DNA of 64,000 bases from an uncultured bacterium (GCA_964606065.1 CAZSEX010000001.1:112429-176428); one strand, 5' to 3'. Positions 8,205 through 30,101 are shown, counted from the first letter of the stretch. The notes: a model not told the origin generated them from the letters alone. Made by a program: numbers and translations.

Positions 8205-8817
8205 ATTGGGCGTTTTAGTTTCCGGCAGAGGTTCTAATCTTCAGGCTATTATCGATAAGAGTAAATTCGGAGAAATCGACGCGGAGGTGGCTGTCGTTCT
8301 TTCCGACAACCCGAACGCTCATGCGCTCCAGAGAGCGAAAAAACTGGGGATTGAAGCCCATTATATTGATCCGGAAAACACAAAACCCGTGTTGATCGGT
8401 AAAGCCGAAGATAATTATATTAATGTTTTAAAAAAACATAATGTGGACCTTGTTTGTCTTGCCGGATTTATGAGGGTAGTAAAAGAAAAAATTATATCAG
8501 AATATAAATGGAAAATGATGAACATTCATCCTTCTCTTTTGCCGTCTTTCAAGGGTCTTCGCGCTCAGAAGCAGGCGCTGAATTACGGAGTACGTTTCGC
8601 CGGAGCCACCGTTCATTTCGTTACAGGAAATGTGGATGGAGGTCCAATAATTCTACAGGCTGTGGTTCCGGTTTATCAGGACGATACTGAAGAAATTTTA
8701 TCGAGCAGAATTTTAAGGGAAGAACACAGGATTTATTCTGAAGCTATAGATCTTTTTGCCAAAAACAAATTAAAAATAAAAGAAGGGAAAGTATTTATAA
8801 AGGAAAAAAATGGATAA
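8194..8817 (+). CDS. purN: Phosphoribosylglycinamide formyltransferase
   Basis: LVSGRGSNLQAIID, NIHPSLLPSFKG, HFVTGNVDGGPII (formyl transferase fold). Confidence 0.85.
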   Translation: MPCRLGVLVSGRGSNLQAIIDKSKFGEIDAEVAVVLSDNPNAHALQRAKKLGIEAHYIDPENTKPVLIGKAEDNYINVLKKHNVDLVCLAGFMRVVKEKIISEYKWKMMNIHPSLLPSFKGLRAQKQALNYGVRFAGATVHFVTGNVDGGPIILQAVVPVYQDDTEEILSSRILREEHRIYSEAIDLFAKNKLKIKEGKVFIKEKNG

Positions 8818-9808
8818 TAAATTAAAAATAGGTCTGGCAGGGGCGGGAGCAGTAGCGCAGATTGGTTATTTACCGGTAATTGTAGAGAGAGAAGATCTCG
8901 TTCTCGAAGCTGTCTGTGAATCGAATAGTGAAAAAGTGGATATTATTTCCAGGATGTATAAAACAGAAAAGATATTCACAGATTACGAAAAAATGCTGCA
9001 GGATTCGGAGATAGACACGGTAATCATTGCTACTCCTAATTATCTGCATACGCCCATGGCTATTTCCGCGCTCGAATACGGGAAAAATGTTCTGTGTGAA
9101 ATGCCTCTCGGTCTCGATGCTAAAGAAGTGAAAAACCTGGGAGAAATTGTAGATTCTTCCGGTTTAATCTTAATGCCCGCTTTCAACGGGAGGTTTAGAC
9201 CCGATGTTGGGATATTGAAGGACCTTGTTTTCAACGGAGAATTAGGTAAACTTTCTTTTGCCAAGGCGGGATGGTTGAAATCGTTGCATGAAGAACATCT
9301 CGATGGGTGGAGAAAGGATCCTTTGAAATCGGGAGGGGGAGCTATTATGACCCTGGGAGTGCAAATTCTCGGCTATGTTACTCATCTTTTTGGCGCCAAT
9401 GTTTCCTCGGTTGTCGCGGGATTTCATACTACCGATAAAATTGAGGATTCCGGAATAATGTTTTTGCGCTACAAAGACGGTAAATATCTTTTGCTTGAAG
9501 TTGGGTGGACTCTGCTTTTTGAAAAAGATTTCACTTATTTCAATCTTTATGGAACCGATGGAGTAGGACTTTTAAATCCTCTTAAGATAAAAAAATTGGA
9601 GAACAAAAGGGTTAAAGATATTACTCCCATCAATGTTCCCAAGCACCCGGTCAAAGATTCGTACCATGGTCTCATAGATTGTTTTGTGAAGGCTATCCGA
9701 GAAAAGCATCTAAAAGAGAATACCTGGAAAGACGCTTACAAAATTGCCAAAATAATAGATGCTGCTTACAGATCGGCAGAGGAGAAGAAAGAAATTCACC
9801 TCGATTGA
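8810..9808 (+). CDS. Gfo/Idh/MocA family oxidoreductase (second copy)
   Basis: IGLAGAGAVAQIGYLPV Rossmann motif ... ATPNYLHTPMAISALEYGKNVLCEMP. Confidence 0.7.
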   Translation: MDNKLKIGLAGAGAVAQIGYLPVIVEREDLVLEAVCESNSEKVDIISRMYKTEKIFTDYEKMLQDSEIDTVIIATPNYLHTPMAISALEYGKNVLCEMPLGLDAKEVKNLGEIVDSSGLILMPAFNGRFRPDVGILKDLVFNGELGKLSFAKAGWLKSLHEEHLDGWRKDPLKSGGGAIMTLGVQILGYVTHLFGANVSSVVAGFHTTDKIEDSGIMFLRYKDGKYLLLEVGWTLLFEKDFTYFNLYGTDGVGLLNPLKIKKLENKRVKDITPINVPKHPVKDSYHGLIDCFVKAIREKHLKENTWKDAYKIAKIIDAAYRSAEEKKEIHLD

Positions 9809-9823
9809 GGGTTTTTCTTTACA

Positions 9824-11371
9824 ATGTTGAATTTTATCAAGTGTTTTAAGAATCCTGTTTACAATTATATCCTGCCTGTTTTTGGAGGAATTTGTTTGAC
9901 TCTTTCATTTCCTCCTTTTAATTTTTCCATCCTTGCCTGGATTTCTTTTATCCCTCTGTTTTATTCCCTTCGAGACGGTAAACATAACTTTTTAAAAGGT
10001 TTTATAATGGGTTTTGCTTTTTTTTCTACGCTTATCTACTGGATTCCTTTATCGGATGTAGAAAATACTGTTGTCCCTCAAGTTATTCTCGGGTCTTTTG
10101 TTTTGATGATATATCTTTCTTCTTTTTTCGGTCTTTCGGGTTTTTTATATAACAAATCAAATAAAAGAGGTATTGTGTATTTGTTCCCGATCGTTTTCTC
10201 AGGGCTGGAGTTCCTTCGAAGCCTTTCCTCGGTCTGGGGTTTTACCTGGGGATCGGTTGGTTTTTCTCAGAGCGGCTTAATTCATCTCGTACAGTTCGCC
10301 TCTATTGGAGGTTTGCCACTTGTTACTTTATGGGTTATTTATTTAAACATTTTTATATATTTGTTTTTTAGAAGTTTGAACGAAAAAAGGAAATACCGAA
10401 TGATTTATCTGTTTCTGTTTATTTCTTTTCTTGGAATTCCCTTGTTGTATTCCTGGCAAGTACTTCGAAAAGATATATCGACCGACGAATACGGAACGGT
10501 AGGAGTAATACAACCGAATGTACTGCCGACCAATAAAAGAGAGGGTGGTTTTGAAAGATTACTCAGGATAAAAAATATTATTGAAGAAGCACCTCCTGCC
10601 GATTTATATGTTTTGCCGGAAACAGCATCCCCTTTTTCTGTTTCAAATGACTACGAAACGGAACTTTTTTTTAAGGCCCTTGCGAGGAAAAAAAATGCAC
10701 CTATTATTACGGGAACTCTTGATTATAGAAGAAAAGAAGGGAAAATTATGTATTACAACGCGGCAGCGGTAGTTGATTCGTCCAGTATAAAAGGTATTTA
10801 TAGGAAAGTATATCTCCTTCCCTTTGTAGAGCGTCTGCCTTTCGATGACGTAATCCCGGTTTTGAAGAGAGTTAATCTGGGACAGGGGCAGTATACACCG
10901 GGTGGAGATTTTACGGTTTTTAAAATCGGGGATTTTAAATTTTCCGTTTATATCTGCTATGAAGGTATTTTCCCACAGCTTCTGAGAAAGTTTGTGGAAA
11001 ACGGAGCTGAAGTGCTTGTTAATATTACCGAAGATGGTTGGTTTGGTAGAACCAGCGGTCCTTACCAGCATGCTCAAATGGCGGCTTTTCAATCGATTAT
11101 ATTCAGAAGGGCGGTTGTGAGGTCCGCCAATACCGGTGTCTCTTTCATCTCGGATCCTTACGGTAGGATTTTAAAGAAAACCCGGATTTTTACCGCGGAT
11201 TATATTGTGTGTGAGGTACCTCTTTTGAAATGCCAAACGGTTTACGCGAAAATCGGGAATATTTTTGGATGGGTTTTTTTTCTGGTTGTTTTATTGGTTT
11301 GGGCTGCAGAACCTGCCAAGAAATTTTTTACAAGGAAAAACCGGAAAGATACAAAGGATGTAACTATATAA
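9824..11371 (+). CDS. lnt: Apolipoprotein N-acyltransferase
   Basis: N-terminal multi-TM region plus C-terminal CN-hydrolase domain (LPETASPFSV, YRKVYLLPFVERLPF, ICYEGIFPQ). Confidence 0.85.
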   Translation: MLNFIKCFKNPVYNYILPVFGGICLTLSFPPFNFSILAWISFIPLFYSLRDGKHNFLKGFIMGFAFFSTLIYWIPLSDVENTVVPQVILGSFVLMIYLSSFFGLSGFLYNKSNKRGIVYLFPIVFSGLEFLRSLSSVWGFTWGSVGFSQSGLIHLVQFASIGGLPLVTLWVIYLNIFIYLFFRSLNEKRKYRMIYLFLFISFLGIPLLYSWQVLRKDISTDEYGTVGVIQPNVLPTNKREGGFERLLRIKNIIEEAPPADLYVLPETASPFSVSNDYETELFFKALARKKNAPIITGTLDYRRKEGKIMYYNAAAVVDSSSIKGIYRKVYLLPFVERLPFDDVIPVLKRVNLGQGQYTPGGDFTVFKIGDFKFSVYICYEGIFPQLLRKFVENGAEVLVNITEDGWFGRTSGPYQHAQMAAFQSIIFRRAVVRSANTGVSFISDPYGRILKKTRIFTADYIVCEVPLLKCQTVYAKIGNIFGWVFFLVVLLVWAAEPAKKFFTRKNRKDTKDVTI

Positions 11372-19781: not shown

Positions 19782-20630
19782 CTATTCATAATAGCCTAAC
19801 CTTTTTACTTCTTCTTTTACTTTTCTCCAGTTTTTTCTAACTGCAACTCTGGTATTCATATATACCTGTCTTCCAAGGAATTTTTCAATGTTCTTACGCG
19901 CCTCGCTCACCACTTTTTTTAATTTTTGTCCTCCTTTTCCGATTATAATACCTTTCTGTGATTCTTTTTCAACAAAAATTTTTATGTCTATTATGTTATC
20001 TTCCATATTCTCCACTTTAACAGCTACAGCGTATGGTATTTCCTGAGAATATTCTTCAAGAACCTTTTCTCTCACGAATTCCTCGATGAAGAACCTCTCC
20101 GGTCTGTCGGATAAGTAATCCTCGGGATAAAATGGTTCTCCCTGGGGTAAGTATTCCTGAAGAGCAGGTATTATTTTATCGGCATTGTCACCCCGTAACG
20201 CAGAAATGGTGAAAACCTTAGTAAAAGATTTTAAATCAATATCTTGTATCAATTTACCGAGGTCGTCCTCTGAAATTAAATCGATCTTATTAACAATCAT
20301 GAAAACCGGTTTATCTACTTTGGAAGGTAAGTCTATTTCTTTCGGGATTTCGCGATGATCTATCATCAGCATTATGACGTCAGAATCTTCTACGGCAAAT
20401 TCGATTTGCTGCTGCATTGCCTTTTCCATTTCATTTCCGGGTTTAAATTGTCCCGGAGTATCCATAAAAATGATTTGATTCCGGTCTTCGGTCCATATCC
20501 CGAAGATTTTATTCCGCGTCGTTTGAGGTTTTGGGGTAACAATAGACAGACTACTGCCTGTAAGGCGATTCATTAAAGTAGACTTACCTACATTGGGTTT
20601 ACCGATTATTGAAACATAACCTGCTTTCAT
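19782..20630 (-). CDS. era: GTPase Era
   Basis: GKPNVGKSTLMNRL, DTPG, NKID, C-terminal KH domain. Start ATG 20630 (MKAGYVSIIG); ATG 20753 would lie upstream of the predicted promoter. Confidence 0.9.
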   Translation of the reverse strand: MKAGYVSIIGKPNVGKSTLMNRLTGSSLSIVTPKPQTTRNKIFGIWTEDRNQIIFMDTPGQFKPGNEMEKAMQQQIEFAVEDSDVIMLMIDHREIPKEIDLPSKVDKPVFMIVNKIDLISEDDLGKLIQDIDLKSFTKVFTISALRGDNADKIIPALQEYLPQGEPFYPEDYLSDRPERFFIEEFVREKVLEEYSQEIPYAVAVKVENMEDNIIDIKIFVEKESQKGIIIGKGGQKLKKVVSEARKNIEKFLGRQVYMNTRVAVRKNWRKVKEEVKRLGYYE

Positions 20631-20668
20631 ATAAGCAAATATATCCCTGTAGCTTGTAAAGTCAAGGG
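20631..20668 (-). promoter_or_regulatory. Core sigma70-like promoter TTGACT-N16-TATATT ending 7 nt before the era ATG (leaderless-type)
   Basis: Minus-strand reading is cccTTGACTttacaagctacagggaTATATTtgcttatATG. Confidence 0.45.
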
Positions 20669-20704
20669 AAGCGGAATTTCGGTTATTAAACCAAACCACA
20701 GATT

Positions 20705-20760
20705 GCACAAGATTATCACAAGAAATTGCACCGCAGAGACGCAGAGGACGCAAAGAAACA
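20705..20760 (-). repeat. Partial copy (about 50 bp core) of the 146-bp dispersed element, upstream of era
   Basis: gattatcacaagaaattgcaccgcagagacgcagaggacgcaaaga matches 57751-57800 and the reverse complement of 51440-51476. Contains TGTGATAAT (extended -10 / Fur-box-like palindrome TGATAATCA) on the minus strand. Confidence 0.7.
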
Positions 20761-20920
20761 AAAAAATTATATAATGTTTTTTAAAACCCATGCTTCAACA
20801 CCCGACGGAATAGAAGTCTTTATTCCGTAGGGCAGGCTGAGAACGCAGAGAACAAATCTTACTTAACCACTAAACGACTTAACTACTCAACAATTCAACC
20901 ATTTAACGGATTCGAAGAAT

Positions 20921-22483
20921 TTACTGTTTTGCTTTTACAACCATTATTTCTTTCGATGTCCAGGCAACAATTTCTCTTCCTCTGTGTAAAAGGGCGAAGA
21001 CTTTTACTTTTATCTGGTCCACGCCTTCGGGAAGTTTACTCGCCTGAAACTCACGATTTAAAATAATCCTGCCTGCCGTTTGGGGGATAACTTTCCAGAT
21101 GACTCCGTAATCAGCGGGTTTTTCATTTAGAATCAAAGGTATTTTGGTGCCTTCAATCACCTCCCGTGAAGAGAAAGTAAAATCAATGAATCCGGAAGCT
21201 GTTTTTACGTCTGTATCTCCATCGTATGAGGATGTATCTGCTATTAAAGACTTATTTTCGCCAATAATTACGAACGCTCTTGCCGGTCTGATGTTTATAT
21301 TCGAGATTGGCTCAGCCATTAAAACTCCAGCCCCGAACCTTCTGGGGACAAAGGTACCATTGTTATTAACAGAGCCGAGATCTTCGGGTATTACTCTCCA
21401 TCGTAAGGGTATTTTTTGGTCGCCTGAGACAGTGAATTGAAATTCGCTGTTAATATCTAAAAAGTGCTTAAAAGAGGGTGTAATTTCTAAGGGTTTAATT
21501 TTATCGGAGGCTATATAAACATCGGCGGAAACGACGCCTTTTCCGAACCTTTCTGGAATAACAGCTATAACTCTGCCTTTTGCGGGAATTTTTCCGGCGA
21601 TAAAAGTACCGTCTTTTCTAATCTGTCCAACCCTCTCGGGTACTACTTTCCATGTGAGCGGAATATTTATATTGCCGAAGCCCTCCGCCTCGACCTTAAA
21701 ATGTGCTATTTCTCCGGTTTTCAGGGTTACGGAGTTGGGAGTTATACGCAGTCCGGTTTCTCCGCTTGCAATCACGATGGCTCGTCCTCGGGTTCCGTTA
21801 TCTTTGCCTACAATCACCGCTTTTCCCGGTACGCTTGCTCTGAATAAACCATTTGAATTTATTTCTCCTATATTGTCGCCTTCGACTCCCCAGGTAATTT
21901 TTTTATTACCTTTTGCTTCAAATTGTACTTTTTCTCCCACTTTTATTCTTACAAACCGCGGAGAAATCCTAATGTCATCTGCCGGTCCGCTTACTCTTAT
22001 AAACGCCGTTTTTATTTCGCCGGTTGTAAGTCGTGCGATTACTCTTCCTCTGCCGCTGTTTTCGGCTGTAAAAACGCCGTTTCTGATATTTCCTATTTCG
22101 GAAGGTATACACTTCCATTCTTTAGCTTTTCCTCCGGTAATTGTGAACCTGATTTGTTCTCCGTTTTTTAAAACCGCGGCTGCGGGAGATATTTTCGCGG
22201 TTTCTCTACTTCCTATTTTAATATAGGCGTATCCGGTTTTTTGTTGTCCGTTTACAATGCTTCGGCATTTAAGAATACCTTTACCTTCTTTTTGTGCCAC
22301 GAAAAAGTTTCCGCGAACCTGCCCGAGAGAATTAGGCACGACGCTAAACGAAAGGTTTCCCCTCATTGGTTTTCCTTCTTTATCCAGAATCTTAACTGTG
22401 AAGGGAATGTTTTCTCCTACTTTGCCTTCTATAGGATTCGGCGATATATGTAAGTCCAGAGACAGTAACAGGAATATCAGCAT
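20921..22483 (-). CDS. Secreted protein with repeated bacterial Ig-like (Big_2-type) domains
   Basis: Signal peptide. Repeats of about 80 aa ending in G(K/R)A(V/I)I.A motifs (GKAVIVGKDNGTRGRAIVIA, AKGRVIAVIP). Last gene of the ECF sigma operon. Confidence 0.55.
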   Translation of the reverse strand: MLIFLLLSLDLHISPNPIEGKVGENIPFTVKILDKEGKPMRGNLSFSVVPNSLGQVRGNFFVAQKEGKGILKCRSIVNGQQKTGYAYIKIGSRETAKISPAAAVLKNGEQIRFTITGGKAKEWKCIPSEIGNIRNGVFTAENSGRGRVIARLTTGEIKTAFIRVSGPADDIRISPRFVRIKVGEKVQFEAKGNKKITWGVEGDNIGEINSNGLFRASVPGKAVIVGKDNGTRGRAIVIASGETGLRITPNSVTLKTGEIAHFKVEAEGFGNINIPLTWKVVPERVGQIRKDGTFIAGKIPAKGRVIAVIPERFGKGVVSADVYIASDKIKPLEITPSFKHFLDINSEFQFTVSGDQKIPLRWRVIPEDLGSVNNNGTFVPRRFGAGVLMAEPISNINIRPARAFVIIGENKSLIADTSSYDGDTDVKTASGFIDFTFSSREVIEGTKIPLILNEKPADYGVIWKVIPQTAGRIILNREFQASKLPEGVDQIKVKVFALLHRGREIVAWTSKEIMVVKAKQ

Positions 22484-23520
22484 TATCCCTCCTTATAGAA
22501 AGTTATGTTTTTTTCTTCTTTTGTTTTAAGAGAAAGGAAATGCAGTCCTTCTTCCAGGGACGGTATGGAATCACTCCCGATAAAGATGATATTCGAATTT
22601 TTCTCTTTAATATAGTTTGTAATTTTTTCTCCGTCCAGGCTTATTTCTATTTCTTCTTCCGGATTTTCCAGTATAAGAACAATTTCAAAATCATTACCCA
22701 CCACGGATCCCTCTTCAGGAAAGACGAAACGGGTTTCTTCAAAACCGCTTCCGGAACCTATTATGCCCGTAAAAGCATCTTCGGTGTAACTATAGGCTGG
22801 CTTTTTTATTTTGGGATCGGTTTTTGCAGCACGGGTAGCCTTTGCTGTACACATATCCATTTTTACTAACGGTCGAGATTCAGACTTTTCGGGAATGGAC
22901 GGGGCTTGTCCCTCGATTTTTTCTCTTTCCGCATAGTTCCGGGTGCTTTCTAATGGAGAATATCCTTTGTCTTTTTTCGCTGAAGTGAAATCCGTTTTCT
23001 TATCCGGTAAAACAAATTTTACCTGCCCGGGCTCTTTCGAAACAGCTCTTAAAGCAGTTTCCTTTTTCTCTTCTTCGTTTTTTTTATGGACAGAAGGAAG
23101 CTTTTCTATTTCTGCTGTTTCGGGGGCTTCCGAAAGTGTTTTTTCCAAAGCCTTTTTAGGCTTTGGAACCGTAGGTATCCGGTCTATTTCTTCCATGTTG
23201 ACCAGGACTGTCGAAACCACTATTATTACAGCCGCGGCGCTTACCGCCAGATATTTCCATCTTATTTTAAGTGTACTTATTATTTGCGGAGTTTCTTTTC
23301 TGGTTGTTTTCTTTAATATATTGTCGATCAAATTATCGGGGCATTGTATTTCTTCTTTTGAAGAATGCAGTTTTCCCACAAGTTTTTTTCTTTCTTCCAG
23401 TTTTTTCGCGCACTCTTCGCAGGATTCGAGGTGTTTCTTTAAAGCCTTAAGTTCTTTATCATCGAGAGCGTTGTCTACATATCCCTGGATTAATTCTTCA
23501 AATTTTCTATGGTCTTTCAT
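22483..23520 (-). CDS. Anti-sigma factor (zinc-finger HC2 type) with single TM helix
   Basis: N-terminal HLESCEECAKK zf-HC2 motif, TM helix WKYLAVSAAAVIIVVSTVLV. 4-nt overlap with the ECF sigma gene. Confidence 0.7.
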   Translation of the reverse strand: MKDHRKFEELIQGYVDNALDDKELKALKKHLESCEECAKKLEERKKLVGKLHSSKEEIQCPDNLIDNILKKTTRKETPQIISTLKIRWKYLAVSAAAVIIVVSTVLVNMEEIDRIPTVPKPKKALEKTLSEAPETAEIEKLPSVHKKNEEEKKETALRAVSKEPGQVKFVLPDKKTDFTSAKKDKGYSPLESTRNYAEREKIEGQAPSIPEKSESRPLVKMDMCTAKATRAAKTDPKIKKPAYSYTEDAFTGIIGSGSGFEETRFVFPEEGSVVGNDFEIVLILENPEEEIEISLDGEKITNYIKEKNSNIIFIGSDSIPSLEEGLHFLSLKTKEEKNITFYKEG

Positions 23521-24047
23521 GATTTCTCCTTAACCAATTCTTCTAATTTGGTAAGAGTTCTATGGAGGCGTGATCTTACCGTACCGATGGGTATTCCCAG
23601 AGTCCTGGCGATGGTTGAATAGTCGCAATCTTCATAGTATCTGAGCACGAGAACTTCCTGGTATTTTCTGGGTAGCTGATGGATCAATTTTTTTATTAGC
23701 TGGCGGTCAGATTTTTCAACCGTGAATTTCTCCGGATTGCCATTGCCTGCGAGGTTTTTTATTTCATCTATAGAGATTTTGCTGTTCTCACGCGCCTGTT
23801 GTCTTCTGTATTTAAAAACAGTATTAAGAGCTATCCTGTATAACCAGGTGTACACGGACGAATCTCCTCTAAAGGACGGGAATCCTCTCCAGGCGTTCAT
23901 AAAAACATCCTGGGTAAGTTCTTTTGTTACTTCATAATTGTTCGTCATATTATAAATCATTTTATAAATCCTCGGGGTATTTTTTTTGACAATTTTTTCA
24001 AACATCTCTTTCCTCTGTTCATATTTTTTGTTCCCCCGTTTCTTCAT
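23517..24047 (-). CDS. ECF-family RNA polymerase sigma-70 factor (RpoE-like)
   Basis: Region 2 QDVFMNAWRGFPSFRGDSSVYTWLYRIALN. Region 4 LPRKYQEVLVLRYYEDCDYSTIARTLGIPIGTVRSRLHR. Confidence 0.9.
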   Translation of the reverse strand: MKKRGNKKYEQRKEMFEKIVKKNTPRIYKMIYNMTNNYEVTKELTQDVFMNAWRGFPSFRGDSSVYTWLYRIALNTVFKYRRQQARENSKISIDEIKNLAGNGNPEKFTVEKSDRQLIKKLIHQLPRKYQEVLVLRYYEDCDYSTIARTLGIPIGTVRSRLHRTLTKLEELVKEKS

Positions 24048-24055
24048 TTGTTTAT

Positions 24056-24083
24056 TTAGATACCAAATTTTCGATTTAGTTCC
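24056..24083 (-). promoter_or_regulatory. Putative ECF (sigmaE-type) autoregulatory promoter GGAACTAAA-N-TCTAA
   Basis: Minus strand reads ttagGGAACTAAAtcgaaaatttggtaTCTAAataaacaaATG. Exactly 18 nt between GGAAC and TCTAA, the same spacing as at 25731 and 27973. Confidence 0.6.
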
Positions 24084-25586
24084 CTAAAAATCGTATTCAT
24101 ATATGATTCTAAGCAGATGTTCTTTATATCCGTTCTCTAAGTATGGGTAATAATTTATGTTTATATTTCCAAGGCTTCCCAGGTTTAATGTTCCGTCCAT
24201 GCTGAAGTCGAAGCTTGTGTTTGAGCCGTTAAGATAAGAGAAAAATCCAATAGACAGCATATGTTTTGCATAATACCATGACAAATTCGATAAAATTCTT
24301 AAGGAATTTGTTTCTTCGAAATATGTTGTTTTTTCGGTCCCCAATGTGTTCTCTATTCGCAGGGAGCCTGAAATCAATTCGAATCCCCCTCCGATATAAC
24401 TGTATTTTTCGTCAAAATATTCTGGGTATTTAGCCCACTGGTATTCCATAATAGGCGCGAAATATGAGGTTAGTTTCCATTTGAATGATTGAATAAGTGA
24501 GATTCCGGGATTTTCCTCTTCTTTATAAACGAGGTACTCGAAATAAGTCGAAAAAGAACCTATTTCGTATATCCCATTCGCGAATCCGGAAAGTCTGCCG
24601 GTGTAAAGATAAGGATTACCGGGCGTTAAATATCCCTCACTGACATTTCTTATGCCGGCTTCCAGACTGTTCAGATTAGATTCAAATATAACTTTTCCTT
24701 CAAAAGCGCTTCCTTCTGTTGTGGAATCGGCGTAAAGGTTGGGATTCCCTTTTGAAAAAGCCCCTTTTATTTTTAACGATAATGCTTTATTTAACCATAA
24801 TCGGGTTTCTCCGGATAAAACAGTGGATTTTTGAGGATCTTCGAATGGGAAAATCATTATATTTGAAGTGTCATCTTCCCCGTAAAAAGCTGTTAAGCCT
24901 ATATATAACGGGTCCTTTTCGAAAGATATTTTACCTCCTAAAAGCAATCTGGGATATTCCGCGAAAAGAGTATCATAATCTTCAGAGTATAGAATAATGG
25001 GAATTAAAGAAAAATTACCTATACCTATTTCGCCGCTTAAGCCATAACCGCCCGGAGAGTATATTGTCAATTCGTCCAGATAAGGCGAAATATAACCGGC
25101 TTCCAGATAATATTTCCCTTTTAAATAACTAAGATAAGGATACCAGTATACAGGATATTCGGGATCATGGTACAGGAAAAATCTCAAATAATTTTCGTTT
25201 TTATAAACAGAAAGGTCCAGCCCTGAAAGAATTTCGTTTTCTGTTGTATAAAAGGTATCCGTCGAATAGGAATTATAATTTCCTATAGATAAATTTCCTG
25301 TAAAAATGTAAGGGTTCTCTTCTGTTTTTTTGATTACTGTAAATGACCATTCTTCGGTTTCGTTTCCGGTTTCTACTTTTATTTTGTGTTTTCCTTCTGT
25401 GGCGTTATTAATTTCGGAGAAAAAATAATCGGATTGCACTTCCCCGGGAAGAGTTTCTCCATCTAAATAGATTTTGATAGATTGTTTTTCTACCGGTGGG
25501 TCGAGCAGAACAGTTATGTCGAATGGGATGGAAGTCGAGTCCCCCGGCGAAATTAAAAAAATAGTTGAAATAATTATTTCAAGCAT
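24084..25586 (-). CDS. Hypothetical secreted / outer-membrane-barrel-like protein (Tyr/Gly-rich, C-terminal ...YEYDF)
   Basis: Alternating beta-strand-like composition and a terminal aromatic residue typical of OMP barrels. First gene of the ECF sigma cluster. Its own sigma70-like promoter (TTGACC-N17-TAAAAT) sits 11 nt before the ATG. Confidence 0.4.
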   Translation of the reverse strand: MLEIIISTIFLISPGDSTSIPFDITVLLDPPVEKQSIKIYLDGETLPGEVQSDYFFSEINNATEGKHKIKVETGNETEEWSFTVIKKTEENPYIFTGNLSIGNYNSYSTDTFYTTENEILSGLDLSVYKNENYLRFFLYHDPEYPVYWYPYLSYLKGKYYLEAGYISPYLDELTIYSPGGYGLSGEIGIGNFSLIPIILYSEDYDTLFAEYPRLLLGGKISFEKDPLYIGLTAFYGEDDTSNIMIFPFEDPQKSTVLSGETRLWLNKALSLKIKGAFSKGNPNLYADSTTEGSAFEGKVIFESNLNSLEAGIRNVSEGYLTPGNPYLYTGRLSGFANGIYEIGSFSTYFEYLVYKEEENPGISLIQSFKWKLTSYFAPIMEYQWAKYPEYFDEKYSYIGGGFELISGSLRIENTLGTEKTTYFEETNSLRILSNLSWYYAKHMLSIGFFSYLNGSNTSFDFSMDGTLNLGSLGNININYYPYLENGYKEHLLRIIYEYDF

Positions 25587-25730
25587 AATTTAGTGCTATT
25601 TTATTGTTTTTTTTACGGTTGGTCAAGGGTGTTTATTATTTAAACCACGAAACACACGAAATACACTAAACCCCACTCCCTTAAAATTTGTGTTCAAAAA
25701 TACACGAAAAAAACCAGGGGCAAGTTTTTT

Positions 25731-25758
25731 TGGAACTAAAATGCGTTTTTGTTATCTA
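25731..25758 (+). promoter_or_regulatory. Putative ECF-sigma-dependent promoter upstream of the serpin gene
   Basis: ttGGAACTAAAatgcgtttttgttaTCTAAtaat, 18-nt gap identical to the sigma gene's own promoter. ATG at 25781 with a GGAGGG SD. Confidence 0.55.
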
Positions 25759-25780
25759 ATAATAAAAACAGGAGGGTAAA

Positions 25781-27013
25781 ATGAGGAATAAAAATGTGTT
25801 CTTTTTATTTGTACTGATTCTGATTTTTGGTTGTGATGTTACTGAACCCACCGAACCGATCAGGGAATTAAGCTCAGCGGAAACGGAACTGATAGAAGCG
25901 GATAATTCTTTCGGGATTAAACTATTTAAAAGGCTTAACGCAGAAACGCCGGATTCGAATGTCTTTATCTCTCCTCTTTCGATTTCGATGGCTCTCGGTA
26001 TGACCTATAACGGGGCCGCCGGGAGTACCGAAGAAGCGATGAGGACCACGCTTGAATTCGGTGATTTATCGATGGGTGAGATAAACGAATCCTATAAAAG
26101 CCTGATAGAATTATTGGAGGGAATAGATTCGGATGTGGAGTTTAATATAGCAAATTCTATCTGGTATAGAGATGACTATACCTTCGAGCAGGATTTTTTT
26201 GACAGGTGCGGTGAATATTTCGACGCGAGAGTGAGCGGCCTCGATTTCGGCAAGCCGCAGGAGGCAAAGGATACGATGGACAACTGGGTGGATGAAAATA
26301 CAAATGGTAAAATCGAAGAAATTGTCGATTATGTCGACCCGATAAATGATGTGATGTTTCTGATAAACGCGATATATTTTAACGGTAACTGGACTTACCG
26401 TTTCGACGAGGAGGATACAGAAGACGGGACATTCTATCTTTTAGGGGGCGAAACAAAAGAGTGCAAGATGATGGAAATAAGAAGCCTTTTTAAGTATTTT
26501 GAAGATTCCCTTTTGCAGGCGATCGATATTCCGTATGGTGACGGGAATTATTCTATGACAGTAATCCTGCCGTATTATTGGAGAGACATTGATGCGTTTA
26601 TTGCGGGATTGACACAGGAGAAGTGGGATGAATGGATGAATGGTTTTTCCGAAGATTCGGTTAATTTGTTTTTACCTAAACTTAAACTGGAATATAAAAT
26701 AGATAAAAATTTGTTAACGGTTCTATCGGATATGGGGATGGAGATCGCTTTCGACCCGTTCGAAGCCGATTTTACCGGGATGTACGCTCCGGGGAACATA
26801 TATATAAGCAGAATAATACACAAGACTTTTTTGGAAGTGGATGAAGAAGGTACGGAAGCCGCGGCAGCCACTGTTGTCGCGATGACGCTTGGGGCAGTCG
26901 AGGACATTTTTCCTACCGTACGCCTGAACAGACCGTTTATTTTCGCAATCAGGGAGAACCATTCCGGTACCATACTTTTCATGGGGAAGATTATCGAGCC
27001 TGTCTGGGATTGA
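25781..27013 (+). CDS. Serpin (serine protease inhibitor) lipoprotein
   Basis: Signal plus lipobox (LILIFGCD). Serpin motifs NAIYFNGNWTYRFD, hinge EEGTEAAAATVVAM, LNRPFIFAIRE. Predicted P1 is acidic (VED/IF). Confidence 0.9.
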   Translation: MRNKNVFFLFVLILIFGCDVTEPTEPIRELSSAETELIEADNSFGIKLFKRLNAETPDSNVFISPLSISMALGMTYNGAAGSTEEAMRTTLEFGDLSMGEINESYKSLIELLEGIDSDVEFNIANSIWYRDDYTFEQDFFDRCGEYFDARVSGLDFGKPQEAKDTMDNWVDENTNGKIEEIVDYVDPINDVMFLINAIYFNGNWTYRFDEEDTEDGTFYLLGGETKECKMMEIRSLFKYFEDSLLQAIDIPYGDGNYSMTVILPYYWRDIDAFIAGLTQEKWDEWMNGFSEDSVNLFLPKLKLEYKIDKNLLTVLSDMGMEIAFDPFEADFTGMYAPGNIYISRIIHKTFLEVDEEGTEAAAATVVAMTLGAVEDIFPTVRLNRPFIFAIRENHSGTILFMGKIIEPVWD

Positions 27014-27068
27014 AAAAAGACGAAAGAGAGTTTTAAGTTTGTTTGGAGAAATAAGCAAGGAGGAGAAC

Positions 27069-27917
27069 ATGAATTATAGGAATTTAGTTGGTGTAACGGT
27101 AATTTTTATGCTTGTTTCCTGCATGGTTTCCGAGGAACCGCTTGACAATTATGTGCATCTTGAATACAACGATTTCATGAAGCTTTCAAATGATGAAATC
27201 GCTGACAGTCTTGCAATAATATTGAATGTTGCACCCGTAACATATAATAAAGTCGTTTCTATCGGGATGTTCTTTTTCGATAATCTTAAATGGGCTATAG
27301 AAGAAGGTCATGAATATATTGCAGAGGATAGTGCGAAAATTATAGTTTGGGTAGACGAGGAAGAGAGTCCTTGTTATGTAACCTATGATTTTAAAAGGAT
27401 TTGGTTTTGGTCTGGTGGAAATTGGACGTATGATGAAGACTCTGTTGTTCTGGAGTTTAAATCAAATCTTGAAAAGACCGGGGTAGATTTAAATTATCCA
27501 TACGATTTAAGAATAAGTAAAAATGAGAATTTCGGCGCTCACTGGTACCGTTTACATATTAATCAAATTTATATCGATTCGGTTGTACACTTTCCGGTTT
27601 TTTATGGGGAATCAGATAGCGATATTAATAAGGTTTACCGTTTACTTGTTAGCAGATGGTATACTAATCTTGATGATATTACAGATACTTTATCAGAGCA
27701 GGCACTAAAGGATAAGGCAGGGGAGTATTTCGAAAATTCCGGAGAAGTTATCTCTATTTCGGATGAATTAGCAATTATGGGATATAAAATTGTCAAAGAC
27801 AAACTCTGCAGAAAAATCGGGAGTGCTGTGATCGATGAATATGGCTCTGAACTTTATTTATATATTGATGTCCAGAATGGAGAAGTAATTAGAGAAGAAG
27901 CTTTGTATTTTGATTAA
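27069..27917 (+). CDS. Hypothetical lipoprotein
   Basis: AAGGAGG SD, signal peptide MNYRNLVGVTVIFMLVSC. No recognisable domain. Confidence 0.45.
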   Translation: MNYRNLVGVTVIFMLVSCMVSEEPLDNYVHLEYNDFMKLSNDEIADSLAIILNVAPVTYNKVVSIGMFFFDNLKWAIEEGHEYIAEDSAKIIVWVDEEESPCYVTYDFKRIWFWSGGNWTYDEDSVVLEFKSNLEKTGVDLNYPYDLRISKNENFGAHWYRLHINQIYIDSVVHFPVFYGESDSDINKVYRLLVSRWYTNLDDITDTLSEQALKDKAGEYFENSGEVISISDELAIMGYKIVKDKLCRKIGSAVIDEYGSELYLYIDVQNGEVIREEALYFD

Positions 27918-27972
27918 TAGTAATATTGTTGATAGATTTTTAAAGCCGAGGAATAGTCCGGACAAAAGCTTT

Positions 27973-28000
27973 GGAACTAAACGAGAGGGGTTTACTCTAA
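27973..28000 (+). promoter_or_regulatory. Putative ECF-sigma-dependent promoter upstream of the lipoprotein gene 28019
   Basis: ttGGAACTAAAcgagaggggtttacTCTAAaaag, same 18-nt spacing. Confidence 0.55.
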
Positions 28001-28018
28001 AAAGTACGGAGGTCCGAA

Positions 28019-28906
28019 ATGAGTAAAAGTAAATTGTTGTTTTTGTCAGTTGTTTTTGTTTTAATGCTTGTTATTGGGTGTGAAAACAATCCAACTGCCA
28101 ACGATATTTCTCTCGATGAAGAAGCAATTCAGAATTACATATCAAATAATCCTGATTTTACCGGATATTTTGAGTTTGATAAATATTACGGAGAGGAAGA
28201 TACTGTAAATCGATTAAGGACCATAACCGGTCCGCATACCTTGTGGTATAGAGAACGGCAGAATATAAACAGAGATATATTCATAAATATAGTAAATGAC
28301 TCAGCCTTTGTTTCCTTCTGGAGTAGAGTTGATGGGATATTTCATATACTTGAAAAAGATACATCCGCGTCTCCGGATACCTTAATCGACCATCAAAAGG
28401 TTCTTGAAGATAACTCTTCTAATTATGCCGTATTTAAACGTTACCCCGGATTATCTTCTTACCGGGGATGGAGACTTGAAAGTTTGACCGGGATAGATGT
28501 AGATGGCAGAGATATCTCACTCGGTGATTGCGTAATTGTTTTTATCGATTCCCTCCGAATTAAATGTGAATCCTACACGGACACGTTATTTGCTACTCCC
28601 CACGTATTTTTCGAGAGAGAAAAACTACTTACTTTTGAAGGAGAGGAAGCAGTCACAATTACCCTTTATTCACATCGTCCTGACGTATATCCTATATATT
28701 CCTATCTGCATGCCAGTACTCTGGGAAGCTGGAAAAGATGGAAATTAGAGGAAACAGAACCCGGAGTATGGGAAGGGGATTGGGTGACTCCGCCAATTCC
28801 CGGAATTAGAACTATCGCATTCGACATTCTGGAAAAGAACACCATCGACGAAGAAGAGAGTGCGTATCTTTCCAACATCTGGTTATTCCCCTACAAAATC
28901 GAGTAA
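28019..28906 (+). CDS. Hypothetical lipoprotein
   Basis: GGAGG SD, signal peptide MSKSKLLFLSVVFVLMLVIGC. No recognisable domain. Confidence 0.45.
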   Translation: MSKSKLLFLSVVFVLMLVIGCENNPTANDISLDEEAIQNYISNNPDFTGYFEFDKYYGEEDTVNRLRTITGPHTLWYRERQNINRDIFINIVNDSAFVSFWSRVDGIFHILEKDTSASPDTLIDHQKVLEDNSSNYAVFKRYPGLSSYRGWRLESLTGIDVDGRDISLGDCVIVFIDSLRIKCESYTDTLFATPHVFFEREKLLTFEGEEAVTITLYSHRPDVYPIYSYLHASTLGSWKRWKLEETEPGVWEGDWVTPPIPGIRTIAFDILEKNTIDEEESAYLSNIWLFPYKIE

Positions 28907-28930
28907 ACTCTGACCTTTTCCGTTTCTTCT

Positions 28931-28965
28931 CAAAGGGGCAGTTTAAGCTGTCCCTTTGTTTTTAA
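28931..28965 (+). terminator. Rho-independent terminator
   Basis: CAAAGGGGCAG-tttaag-CTGTCCCTTTG hairpin followed by TTTTT. Confidence 0.65.
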
Positions 28966-28994
28966 ATTACTTTTTTAAAAAAAATTCCCGACCC

Positions 28995-29029
28995 TTGACA
29001 CTTAGACACAATTATGATAGGTTGTATAG
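28995..29029 (+). promoter_or_regulatory. sigma70-like promoter TTGACA-N17-TAGGTT ending 6 nt before the xseB ATG (leaderless-type)
   Basis: cccTTGACActtagacacaattatgaTAGGTTgtatagATG, with no SD. Confidence 0.45.
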
Positions 29030-29269
29030 ATGAAATTTGAAGAATCGCTGAATAAACTCGAAGATATTGTTAAAAAATTAGAAGAAGGAGAGATTTCTCT
29101 TGAAGAATCTCTACCTTTGTTTGAAAAGGGCATAAAACTTCTGACCGAATTAAAAGAGTATCTGTCACAGGCGGAAACAAAGATAGAAAAATTGATAAAA
29201 GATAGTGAAGGTCAATTTAAAACCGATGAATATAGAGAATTATCTGACGACCTGGAAGAAGAAAGTTGA
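29030..29269 (+). CDS. xseB: Exodeoxyribonuclease VII small subunit
   Basis: FEESLNKLEDIVKKLEEGEISLEESLPLFEKGIKL, typical XseB. Followed by ispA and dxs, as in E. coli. Confidence 0.85.
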   Translation: MKFEESLNKLEDIVKKLEEGEISLEESLPLFEKGIKLLTELKEYLSQAETKIEKLIKDSEGQFKTDEYRELSDDLEEES

Positions 29270-30101
29270 TGATAAGTTAAACGAGTATCTTCCTTCGGAA
29301 GATGAGTATCCCCAATTGTTGCATAAAGCAATGCGGTATTCAGTTCTTTCCGGAGGGAAGAGAATAAGAGCAATTCTTATGATAACCACTTACTCTCTCT
29401 CGGGTGGGCGCAAATTAGATGATATTATGCCTGTTTCTTCGGCTGTCGAGTTTATTCATTCTTATTCGCTGATTCACGACGATTTACCCGCCATGGATGA
29501 TGATGATTATAGAAGAGGAGTTTTAAGCTGTCACAAAAAATTTGGGGAAGCTATCGCCATATTGGCAGGTGATGCTCTTTTTTCACACGCTTTTTATCTG
29601 ATTTCACATAGCGATATCGAAGCAGGACTGAAAGAAAAGACATTTAAAGCGCTAACGGAAGCTATTGGTAACAGGGGAATTATAGGGGGTCAGGTAGAGG
29701 ATGTTTTATCTGATTCCAACAGAAAAGACCCGAAACTTCTAAGGTATATCCATTCTCATAAAACGGCTTCTTTCTTTTCGGCGGTTTGTGAGATGGGAGC
29801 GATTCTTGCAGAAGCCCCGATGGATAAAATTCTAGCTTCGAGAAGGGGAGGGCTTTTACTTGGTATGGCTTTTCAAATTCAGGATGATATTTTAGATGTA
29901 GAAGGCAAAAAAGAAGAAATGGGTAAAGAGGTAGAAAAAGATAAGGACAAACTGACATATCCACTGGTTTATGGAATTGATTTTTCAAAAACGATAGCGA
30001 AAAGATACAGTATGCTCGCGTTAAGAGAATTGAGTGTTTTTGACGATAAGGATAAAATATTTGAAGAGTTGTTAAACTTTTTGCTCGGGCGGAGAAATTA
30101 G
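29226..30101 (+). CDS. ispA: Polyprenyl (farnesyl/geranylgeranyl) diphosphate synthase
   Basis: FARM LIHDDLPAMDDDDYRRG and SARM FQIQDDILD. Overlaps the xseB 3' end; start at 29226 or 29205. Confidence 0.85.
   Translation: MNIENYLTTWKKKVDDKLNEYLPSEDEYPQLLHKAMRYSVLSGGKRIRAILMITTYSLSGGRKLDDIMPVSSAVEFIHSYSLIHDDLPAMDDDDYRRGVLSCHKKFGEAIAILAGDALFSHAFYLISHSDIEAGLKEKTFKALTEAIGNRGIIGGQVEDVLSDSNRKDPKLLRYIHSHKTASFFSAVCEMGAILAEAPMDKILASRRGGLLLGMAFQIQDDILDVEGKKEEMGKEVEKDKDKLTYPLVYGIDFSKTIAKRYSMLALRELSVFDDKDKIFEELLNFLLGRRN

Follow-up and report, generated by a model that had tools for sequence, protein, structure and literature searches.

What reads the promoter-like motif that stands three times in a 64,000-nucleotide stretch of DNA from an uncultured bacterium (CAZSEX010000001.1:112429-176428 of assembly GCA_964606065.1), and which genes does it serve? 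This whole stretch is hereafter called the window, and positions are counted from its first letter. The three copies are found upstream of an operon for a sigma factor of the extracytoplasmic function (ECF) type and its anti-sigma factor, upstream of a serpin gene and upstream of a gene encoding a lipoprotein of 295 amino acids (aa). We conclude that RNA polymerase equipped with the adjacent RpoE-like ECF sigma factor very probably uses these copies as promoters, so that the three transcription units would form one autoregulated regulon. The motif with its positions, statistics and conservation, the identities of the genes and the DNA-contact residues of the sigma factor are shown directly by the analysis; the reading of the motif by this particular sigma factor, the transcription start sites, the leaderless translation, the operon structure and the nature of the signal are what we infer from the DNA. 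Where homologs of the sigma factor and of the serpin come with a source name, it is candidate division WOR-3.

Three copies of one promoter motif in the window

The preliminary description of this window had reported an architecture made of GGAACTAAA, exactly 18 nt and TCTAA. Taken literally, this pattern has no match, because the 18 nt had been counted from the end of GGAAC. When the distance is counted in this way, the pattern GGAAC-N18-TCTAA (equivalent to GGAACTAAA-N14-TCTAA) matches exactly three times in the 64 kb, at 24056-24083 on the minus strand and at 25732-25759 and 27973-28000 on the plus strand; the second of these had been placed at 25731-25758, one base off its true position. 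The chance expectation is 0.23 matches, and three were reached in none of 100 dinucleotide-preserving shuffles. Searching the window with up to two mismatches over the 14 specified bases yielded no site beyond the three. A position weight matrix (PWM) built from related sites gave them scores of 48, 39 and 21 bits, with the next best position at -2 and the best shuffle score at 9.7. Relaxed patterns and the PWM disclosed no additional regulon member in the window, in agreement with the earlier statement that the motif is not found at its other promoters.

All three copies are intergenic and oriented toward their start codons, with gaps from TCTAA to ATG of 8 nt for the sigma gene (24047), 21 nt for the serpin gene (25781) and 18 nt for the gene of the 295-aa lipoprotein (28019). 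No extended repeat outside the motif is common to the three sites. The longest inverted repeat of the region pairs the sigma promoter with the serpin promoter (44 nt at 70%), and Rfam models gave no matches over positions 20000-30000. The copy preceding the sigma gene had been described as buried in the end of the upstream gene. GGAAC begins one base after the TAG stop codon of that gene, so that the core promoter abuts the stop, and 8 nt lie between the end of the -10 box and the sigma ATG; the overlap with the last codons of the upstream gene is restricted to the T-rich stretch 5' of the -35 box.

Conservation of the motif in related WOR-3 loci

The related set comprised 25 WOR-3 loci besides the window (408 kb in total; single loci are designated by L numbers). 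The sigma orthologs group tightly in one clade, with identities of 50-100%, and beyond it identity falls to below 45%. Exact matches to GGAAC-N18-TCTAA numbered 34 in these 408 kb, and all of them immediately precede one of three gene families: 21 stand at the sigma operon, 8 at the first serpin of a cluster and 5 at the family of the 295-aa lipoprotein, with no exact match elsewhere. This comparison strongly supports the regulon that had been predicted from the window alone. A scan of contigs for orthologs retained 3 true orthologs among 80 loci, the remainder being used as a negative control; in unrelated loci, amounting to 1.69 Mb, there were three matches, two of them upstream of the ECF homolog of the locus. 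Relaxed matches (N17, N19, TCNAA) in the related loci were rejected as sites, since they fall inside genes and look like chance.

Among 24 unique sites, GGAAC, TCTAA and the 18-nt distance are invariant and the preceding T-tract is invariant or nearly so, while the spacer (save for a T-rich patch) and the flanks drift. In alignments of the regions upstream of the serpin and lipoprotein genes, only the T-tract, the two boxes (-35 and -10), the T-rich part of the spacer between them and the Shine-Dalgarno (SD) sequence are conserved. The distance from motif to start codon is short and fixed per family (8, 20-22 and 18-36 nt), and the matches keep their orthologous positions while the flanking proteins have diverged by 25-55%. 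The motif also follows its genes through rearrangements. At L172, the cluster of serpin, 282-aa and 295-aa genes lies about 9 kb from the sigma operon, with pst/pho genes between, and both motifs are kept; at L173 the serpin/lipoprotein cluster has both motifs intact on a contig without a sigma operon. The most distant orthologs (L090, L164 and L165, with sigma factors 58-61% identical) have a gene for a FecR-domain protein inserted in front of the sigma gene, and the motif still stands directly after the stop of the upstream barrel gene. The lipoprotein site of L169 has a single mismatch, CGAAC.

The insert of these distant loci, which encodes a protein of 391-393 aa (PF04773; L164 5471-6652, L165 8806-9987, L090 about 8806-9981), separates the sigma gene from the ECF promoter and has a normal SD sequence, so the sigma factor is not leaderless there.

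Outside this clade, distant ECF homologs from other phyla were inspected at 135 loci. In 12 of them GGAAC-N18/19-(G)TC(T/C/A)AA stands in the 300 nt upstream of the sigma gene, where about 0.4 would be expected. This type of motif is therefore a general RpoE-like one that extends beyond WOR-3. The 12 sites (L005 9905-9932, L021 9808-9835 and ten more) belong to homologs that are 29-39% identical and come from Planctomycetes, Armatimonadetes and other phyla.

A probable match between the sigma factor and the promoter

The closest solved relative of the sigma factor is E. coli sigmaE (1OR7, E = 1e-21; 6JBQ). Two chains of close similarity, 6IN7 and 8Z6G, which we take to be Pseudomonas AlgU, were also matched. 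Region 2 is nearly identical to that of sigmaE (FRGDSSVYTWLYRIALNT here, FRGDSAFYTWLYRIAVNT in E. coli), and the recognition helices match (PIGTVRSRLHR here, PVGTVRSRIFR in E. coli). In sigmaE, R176 and S172 read the two G's of GGAACTT and R171 reads the G opposite C (Lane and Darst, PMC1540707); the presence of serine as residue 172 goes along with a G at -34 (PMC1540707). The sigmaE residues P166, T169, R171, S172 and R176 correspond to P153, T156, R158, S159 and R163 here, all five being invariant in 26 orthologs.

The promoters of sigmaE consist of GGAACTT, a strongly preferred 16-nt spacer, TCAAA and a discriminator of 5-6 nt, preceded by A/T-rich sequence (Rhodius et al., PMC1312014). 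Written in the same frame, the motif is GGAACTA-N16-TCTAA, with equal geometry and agreement at 10 of the 12 bases, so the match to the E. coli consensus that had been noted earlier stands. A T-tract precedes GGAAC at all sites.

Weighing the alternatives

Several observations weigh against a single regulon driven by the adjacent sigma factor. There is no terminator between the barrel gene and the sigma gene, and transcription that starts at the sigma70-like promoter (25626-25598) may also run through into the latter; on such a read-through transcript the sigma gene would have no SD sequence. A weak sigma70-like site (25612-25639, 9/12 matches) is present upstream of the serpin. More distant WOR-3 serpins (L170 and L171, 52-58% identity) lack the motif, and the most distant homolog of the 295-aa lipoprotein (L174) has TATAA in place of TCTAA, hence the predicted regulon is confined to one sub-lineage. 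The evidence is all computational and covers about 64 kb of this genome, and a paralogous ECF sigma factor of the same specificity, or further targets, could lie outside these 64 kb.

The last point leads to the strongest alternative, in which a paralogous ECF sigma factor encoded elsewhere mainly reads the promoter and the adjacent sigma gene is merely one of its targets. GGAAC...TC(T/C/A)AA is indeed common to many RpoE-like sigma factors, as the 12 distant loci indicate, and the inspected part of the genome is the window. We nevertheless consider this quite improbable, given that the motif accompanies the sigma operon throughout the 21 ortholog loci and is kept after a gene insertion, which is the signature of autoregulation. 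Moreover, the adjacent sigma factor has exactly the residues expected to read GGAAC, and the window holds no second sigma factor.

It is less probable still that the boxes form a conventional transcription-factor site or belong to a small mobile or duplicated element. Duplications of the serpin have carried the motif along, with decayed copies before the second and third serpins of L169, as an element of this kind might do. However, the boxes form neither a palindrome nor a direct repeat, the sequence of the spacer is free and its length fixed at 18 nt, the distances to the start codons are short and fixed per gene family, and neither similarity past the motif nor an Rfam match was found. Finally, functionless chance matches in AT-rich intergenic DNA, for which the 39% G+C of the genome and the frequency of TCTAA-like and A/T-rich strings might speak, are effectively refuted by the comparative data, with 34 related matches at orthologous positions and no shuffle reaching three.

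Genes and signals of the locus

The features of the locus are collected in Table 1. The preliminary description had named an ECF sigma/anti-sigma operon, an upstream outer-membrane protein, a serpin lipoprotein and other lipoproteins; domain searches, structure modelling and inspection of the N-termini, which are of lipoprotein type in the three plus-strand proteins, support these identities, as detailed below.

Table 1. Features of the sigma/serpin locus, in order of position in the window.
Feature	Position	Strand	Remarks
Big_2 (bacterial Ig-like) repeat protein, 520 aa	20921..22483	-	third gene of the sigma operon; strong SD
Anti-sigma factor, 345 aa	22483..23520	-	zf-HC2; ATGA overlap of its start with the sigma stop
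ECF (group IV) sigma factor, RpoE-like, 176 aa	23517..24047	-	Sigma70_r2 20-86, Sigma70_r4_2 116-168
Predicted ECF-type promoter, sigma operon: GGAACTAAATCGAAAATTTGGTATCTAA	24056..24083	-	same position in 21 related loci
Outer-membrane beta-barrel protein, 500 aa	24084..25586	-	AlphaFold (AF2) model and Foldseek; C-terminal ...YEYDF
Sigma70-type promoter-like site, barrel gene: TTGACC-17-TAAAAT	25598..25626	-	ends 11 nt before ATG; no SD
Predicted ECF-type promoter, serpin: GGAACTAAAATGCGTTTTTGTTATCTAA	25732..25759	+	kept before the first serpin in 7 further loci
Serpin, 410 aa	25781..27013	+	PF00079, E = 2.3e-114, residues 40-407
Putative lipoprotein, 282 aa	27069..27917	+	LVSC lipobox; own SD; 55 nt past serpin
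Predicted ECF-type promoter, 295-aa lipoprotein: GGAACTAAACGAGAGGGGTTTACTCTAA	27973..28000	+	18 nt before ATG; 4 further loci
Putative lipoprotein, 295 aa	28019..28906	+	VIGC lipobox; lineage-restricted family
Terminator-like hairpin, strong	28931..28958	+	12 bp stem, then T run; closes the serpin/lipoprotein cluster

The neighbourhood is ordinary chromosome, with era, xseB, ispA, dxs, lpxC, fabZ, lpxA, lnt, bacA and others. The presence of lpxA, lpxC and lnt in the window indicates a diderm organism that would make lipoproteins. PADLOC defence models gave no matches on the five unannotated proteins.

The sigma operon

The sigma factor scores 108 bits against TIGR02937 (sigma70-ECF; cut-off 43) and has the attributes of an ECF sigma factor, namely domains 2 and 4 only, a small size within the range of about 170-220 aa usual for the class, an adjoining anti-sigma gene and, upstream, a -35 box containing AAC with a conserved -10 box. 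Its N-terminal 14 residues (MKKRGNKK.EQRKE) are kept in length and largely kept in sequence among orthologs. Met15 (24005), which has AGGAAAGAG upstream, was considered as the start codon and rejected, since most orthologs have I, L, V, T or R in its place. As residues 1-14 are conserved and Met15 is not, the translation start was set at 24047.

No SD sequence precedes this start, and GGAGG-type sites are found at the serpin gene, both lipoprotein genes and the Big_2 gene. The 8-nt gap between TCTAA and the sigma ATG (ATAAACAA) recurs in every close ortholog, and is 7 nt in L162. With a discriminator of 5-6 nt, the sigma transcript would begin 0-3 nt 5' of AUG. Because there is no SD sequence and the ATG lies only 8 nt past the -10 box, the sigma mRNA is probably leaderless or nearly so. 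The barrel gene and the sigma gene are both devoid of an SD sequence and start 8-11 nt past a -10 box, of sigma70-like versus ECF-like type, which suggests near-leaderless mRNAs for both.

The zf-HC2 protein that overlaps the sigma stop has the zinc motif H4...H30-x3-C34-x2-C37 (PF13490, E = 3.6e-9) of zinc-binding anti-sigma (ZAS) factors and is predicted to bind zinc. The 4-nt start/stop overlap between the sigma and anti-sigma genes is kept in all ortholog loci. The N-terminal zinc finger is followed by a single transmembrane helix at about residues 88-108; beyond it, a long and charged linker leads to a C-terminal domain, about 85 aa in size, that is conserved. In distant orthologs this C-terminal domain is kept at 51-62% identity and the cytoplasmic zinc-finger domain at 37-50%. 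In the comparison with L162-L165, the linker, rich in K, E and P, proved variable in length, so that the size of the full protein lies between 244 and 348 aa. The C-terminal part, a small beta domain, matched no Pfam family; a likeness to the N-terminal domain of the barrel protein was tested and gave no alignment.

The start of the Big_2 gene overlaps the anti-sigma stop, and at every ortholog locus that is complete this gene lies downstream of the anti-sigma gene.

The serpin and lipoprotein cluster

The leader of the serpin mRNA would be short, the 21 nt that precede the ATG containing the SD sequence AGGAGGG. The serpin has a canonical inhibitory hinge, EEGTEAAAAT (P15-P9 G-T-E-A-A-A-A), from which it is predicted to be an inhibitor. 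The hinge EEGTEAAAATVV is the same in all serpin paralogs; the distal reactive loop varies between paralogs and orthologs.

Tandem serpins in two to three copies are found in L168 (8747-12560), L169 (8711-12534) and L173 (2050-4570), with the same hinges and very different distal loops. Only the first serpin of a tandem has an intact ECF motif, the second and third of L169 being preceded by decayed copies.

The preliminary description had listed two or three lipoproteins as outputs of the regulon. This is supported for the 295-aa protein, whose gene has the motif. The 282-aa gene has no motif of its own and no terminator separates it from the serpin gene, for which reasons it is probably co-transcribed with the serpin; an ortholog occupies the same position in L172. 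Each of the three proteins has a lipobox after a hydrophobic stretch: it reads ...LIFGC in the serpin, at the end of a signal peptide, ...MLVSC in the 282-aa protein and ...LVIGC in the 295-aa one. All three are predicted to be lipidated, and Cys21 is invariant across 33 homologs. The 295-aa protein is predicted to fold as Ig-like beta-sandwiches and belongs to a very restricted family, for which 5.8 billion proteins contained 34 relatives, with identities of 43-100%. It was tested as a paralog of the 282-aa lipoprotein and is not one.

The upstream barrel gene and its surroundings

The AlphaFold model of the 500-aa protein, made from a 10-sequence alignment, has an overall predicted local distance difference test (pLDDT) score of 75.5, and of 85-95 at residues 120-480 approximately. 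It is an all-beta barrel of about 22-24 long strands, preceded by an N-terminal domain (about 90 residues) for which the model is poor. The best Foldseek matches in the PDB were FimD/PapC, BtuB, LamB, AlgE and LptD, a generic likeness to large outer-membrane barrels, and no match was found in Pfam and NCBIfam. The family is tiny, with 16 representatives among 1.84 billion, and the gene is kept beside the sigma operon in all ortholog loci at 45-75% identity. Its promoter layout is repeated in L162 and L166.

The N-termini of the 500-aa protein (MLEIIISTIFLISPGD, 25586-25530) and of the 520-aa Big_2 protein (MLIFLLLSLDLHISPN, 22483-22430) are short and hydrophobic, without a positive n-region, and are followed by ISP. 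They represent atypical signal peptides on exported-looking proteins, in a part where the confidence of the structure model is low.

Between the barrel gene and the serpin promoter (25641-25714) stand three direct copies of about 17 nt with the core ACACGAAA, which could be either an operator or low-complexity sequence. These repeats were not seen in the relatives, where a DUF4870 (MamF/MmsF-like) membrane gene with a sigma70-type promoter fills the space just 5' of the serpin promoter (L168 8247-8600, L169 8210-8563, L173 1550-1903). The DUF4870 gene is absent from the window.

Proposed circuit and its significance

In the circuit that we propose, the membrane-spanning zinc-finger anti-sigma factor would sequester the sigma factor in the resting state, and an extracytoplasmic cue would inactivate the anti-sigma factor and free the sigma factor. 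The latter would then direct transcription from the boxes GGAAC(T/C)AA (-35) and (A)TCTAA (-10). Copy 1 of the motif would drive the sigma/anti-sigma/Big_2 operon and thereby positive autoregulation, copy 2 the inhibitory, lipid-anchored serpin and probably the 282-aa lipoprotein with it, and copy 3 the lineage-specific 295-aa lipoprotein. "Envelope stress" is for this regulon a label and not a finding.

Such a circuit would provide a concrete testable regulon for the uncultured phylum WOR-3, in which one sigma factor would serve three transcription units by a single promoter rule of 28 nt, and would place a bacterial serpin under an ECF sigma/anti-sigma switch. The compact sigma/promoter pair could, by prediction, be moved into an E. 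coli reporter host or be used as a part for genetic switches.

A more specific version, which we regard as speculative and unlikely though not negligible, is that the circuit senses proteases. Secreted serine proteases, foreign or the cell's own, would clip the exposed, charged linker of the anti-sigma factor, which is probably disordered, or act via the barrel and Big_2 proteins; the freed sigma factor would amplify itself from its leaderless mRNA and coat the cell with lipid-anchored serpins, whose loops would diversify by tandem duplication. The conserved C-terminus of the anti-sigma factor, the invariant presence of the barrel and Big_2 genes and the amplified, loop-variable serpins are compatible with the sensing of proteolysis and are not proof of it. 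If proteolytic attack were the trigger, it would constitute a new input class for ECF signalling and would explain the amplification of serpins with variable reactive loops in these sediment bacteria. The regulon would then act as an inducible shield against proteases, and no earlier ECF system would have been shown to detect proteolytic attack and respond with a serpin.

Comparison with known systems

Autoregulation and co-location with targets are typical of ECF sigma factors (PMC7826278). The locus resembles the RpoE system of E. coli in its identical -35 contact residues, region 2, promoter geometry, A/T-rich upstream sequence, autoregulation and diderm host. In contrast, the sigma factor scores 101.9 bits against the RpoE equivalog model TIGR02939, well below the cut-off of 236, and its anti-sigma factor is of the zf-HC2 (ZAS) type, so that an assignment to the E. 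coli RpoE-RseABC (ECF02) type does not hold. Neither RseA, RseB nor RseC families were detected at the locus, where the gene following that of the anti-sigma factor encodes the Big_2 protein, and no homolog of DegS or RseP, whose proteolytic cascade in E. coli responds to unfolded C-termini of outer-membrane proteins, is present within the 64-kb window. The predicted outputs also differ, with a serpin and orphan lipoproteins here and genes for outer-membrane-protein folding or lipopolysaccharide in E. coli. Furthermore, the sigma factor is probably leaderless here and the module is flanked by a conserved outer-membrane barrel and the Big_2 protein. By its sequence, the sigma factor is predicted to act like sigmaE at the promoter, within a system that is placed outside the RpoE-RseABC group because of the equivalog score and the ZAS-type anti-sigma factor.

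A likeness in architecture is seen with transmembrane ZAS/ECF pairs such as ChrR-RpoE of Rhodobacter, RslA-SigL and RsdA-SigD, which have the H...H-x3-C-x2-C motif, one transmembrane helix, an extracytoplasmic domain and translational coupling in common with the present pair. The anti-sigma factor here differs in falling below the cut-offs of the ChrR and RsrA models and in having a long charged linker and a small beta domain. With FecA-FecR-FecI, the locus shares an outer-membrane barrel gene that is always beside the sigma/anti-sigma pair, to which the distant orthologs add a FecR-domain protein. However, the barrel has no match to a TonB-dependent receptor, a plug or a signalling domain, the anti-sigma factor of the window has no FecR domain and the sigma factor is RpoE-like and not FecI-like. 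Since the barrel lacks the features of a TonB receptor, the system is not of the FecIRA type.

A likeness in logic only is offered by sigmaV-RsiV, which also combines an ECF sigma factor, a membrane anti-sigma factor, a very small regulon and a dedicated extracytoplasmic protective output. There, the inducer lysozyme binds the anti-sigma factor directly (PMC4183432). The anti-sigma factor here is unrelated to RsiV, and a protease as inducer is an analogy only.

A search of open-access text returned no paper linking a serpin to an ECF sigma factor, which agrees with the earlier suggestion that such an output is undescribed: a single paper mentioned both serpins and ECF sigma/anti-sigma factors, as unrelated topics, and nothing was found on serpins in WOR-3. 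Serpins and protease inhibitors are absent from the main text of the ECF re-classification paper. A precedent is that of Bifidobacterium breve, in which a serpin is controlled by an adjacent two-component system and induced by proteases such as papain (PMC8012564). In both cases, a bacterial serpin would be under a dedicated envelope-spanning signalling system encoded beside it. The systems differ in that a histidine kinase and response regulator are used in this actinobacterium and an ECF sigma/anti-sigma pair would be used in WOR-3, where the serpins are diderm lipoproteins and are often tandemly amplified. The proposed mechanism follows the standard ECF paradigm, with a small and ordinary stress-type regulon, and it is the output which is new among the literature searched.

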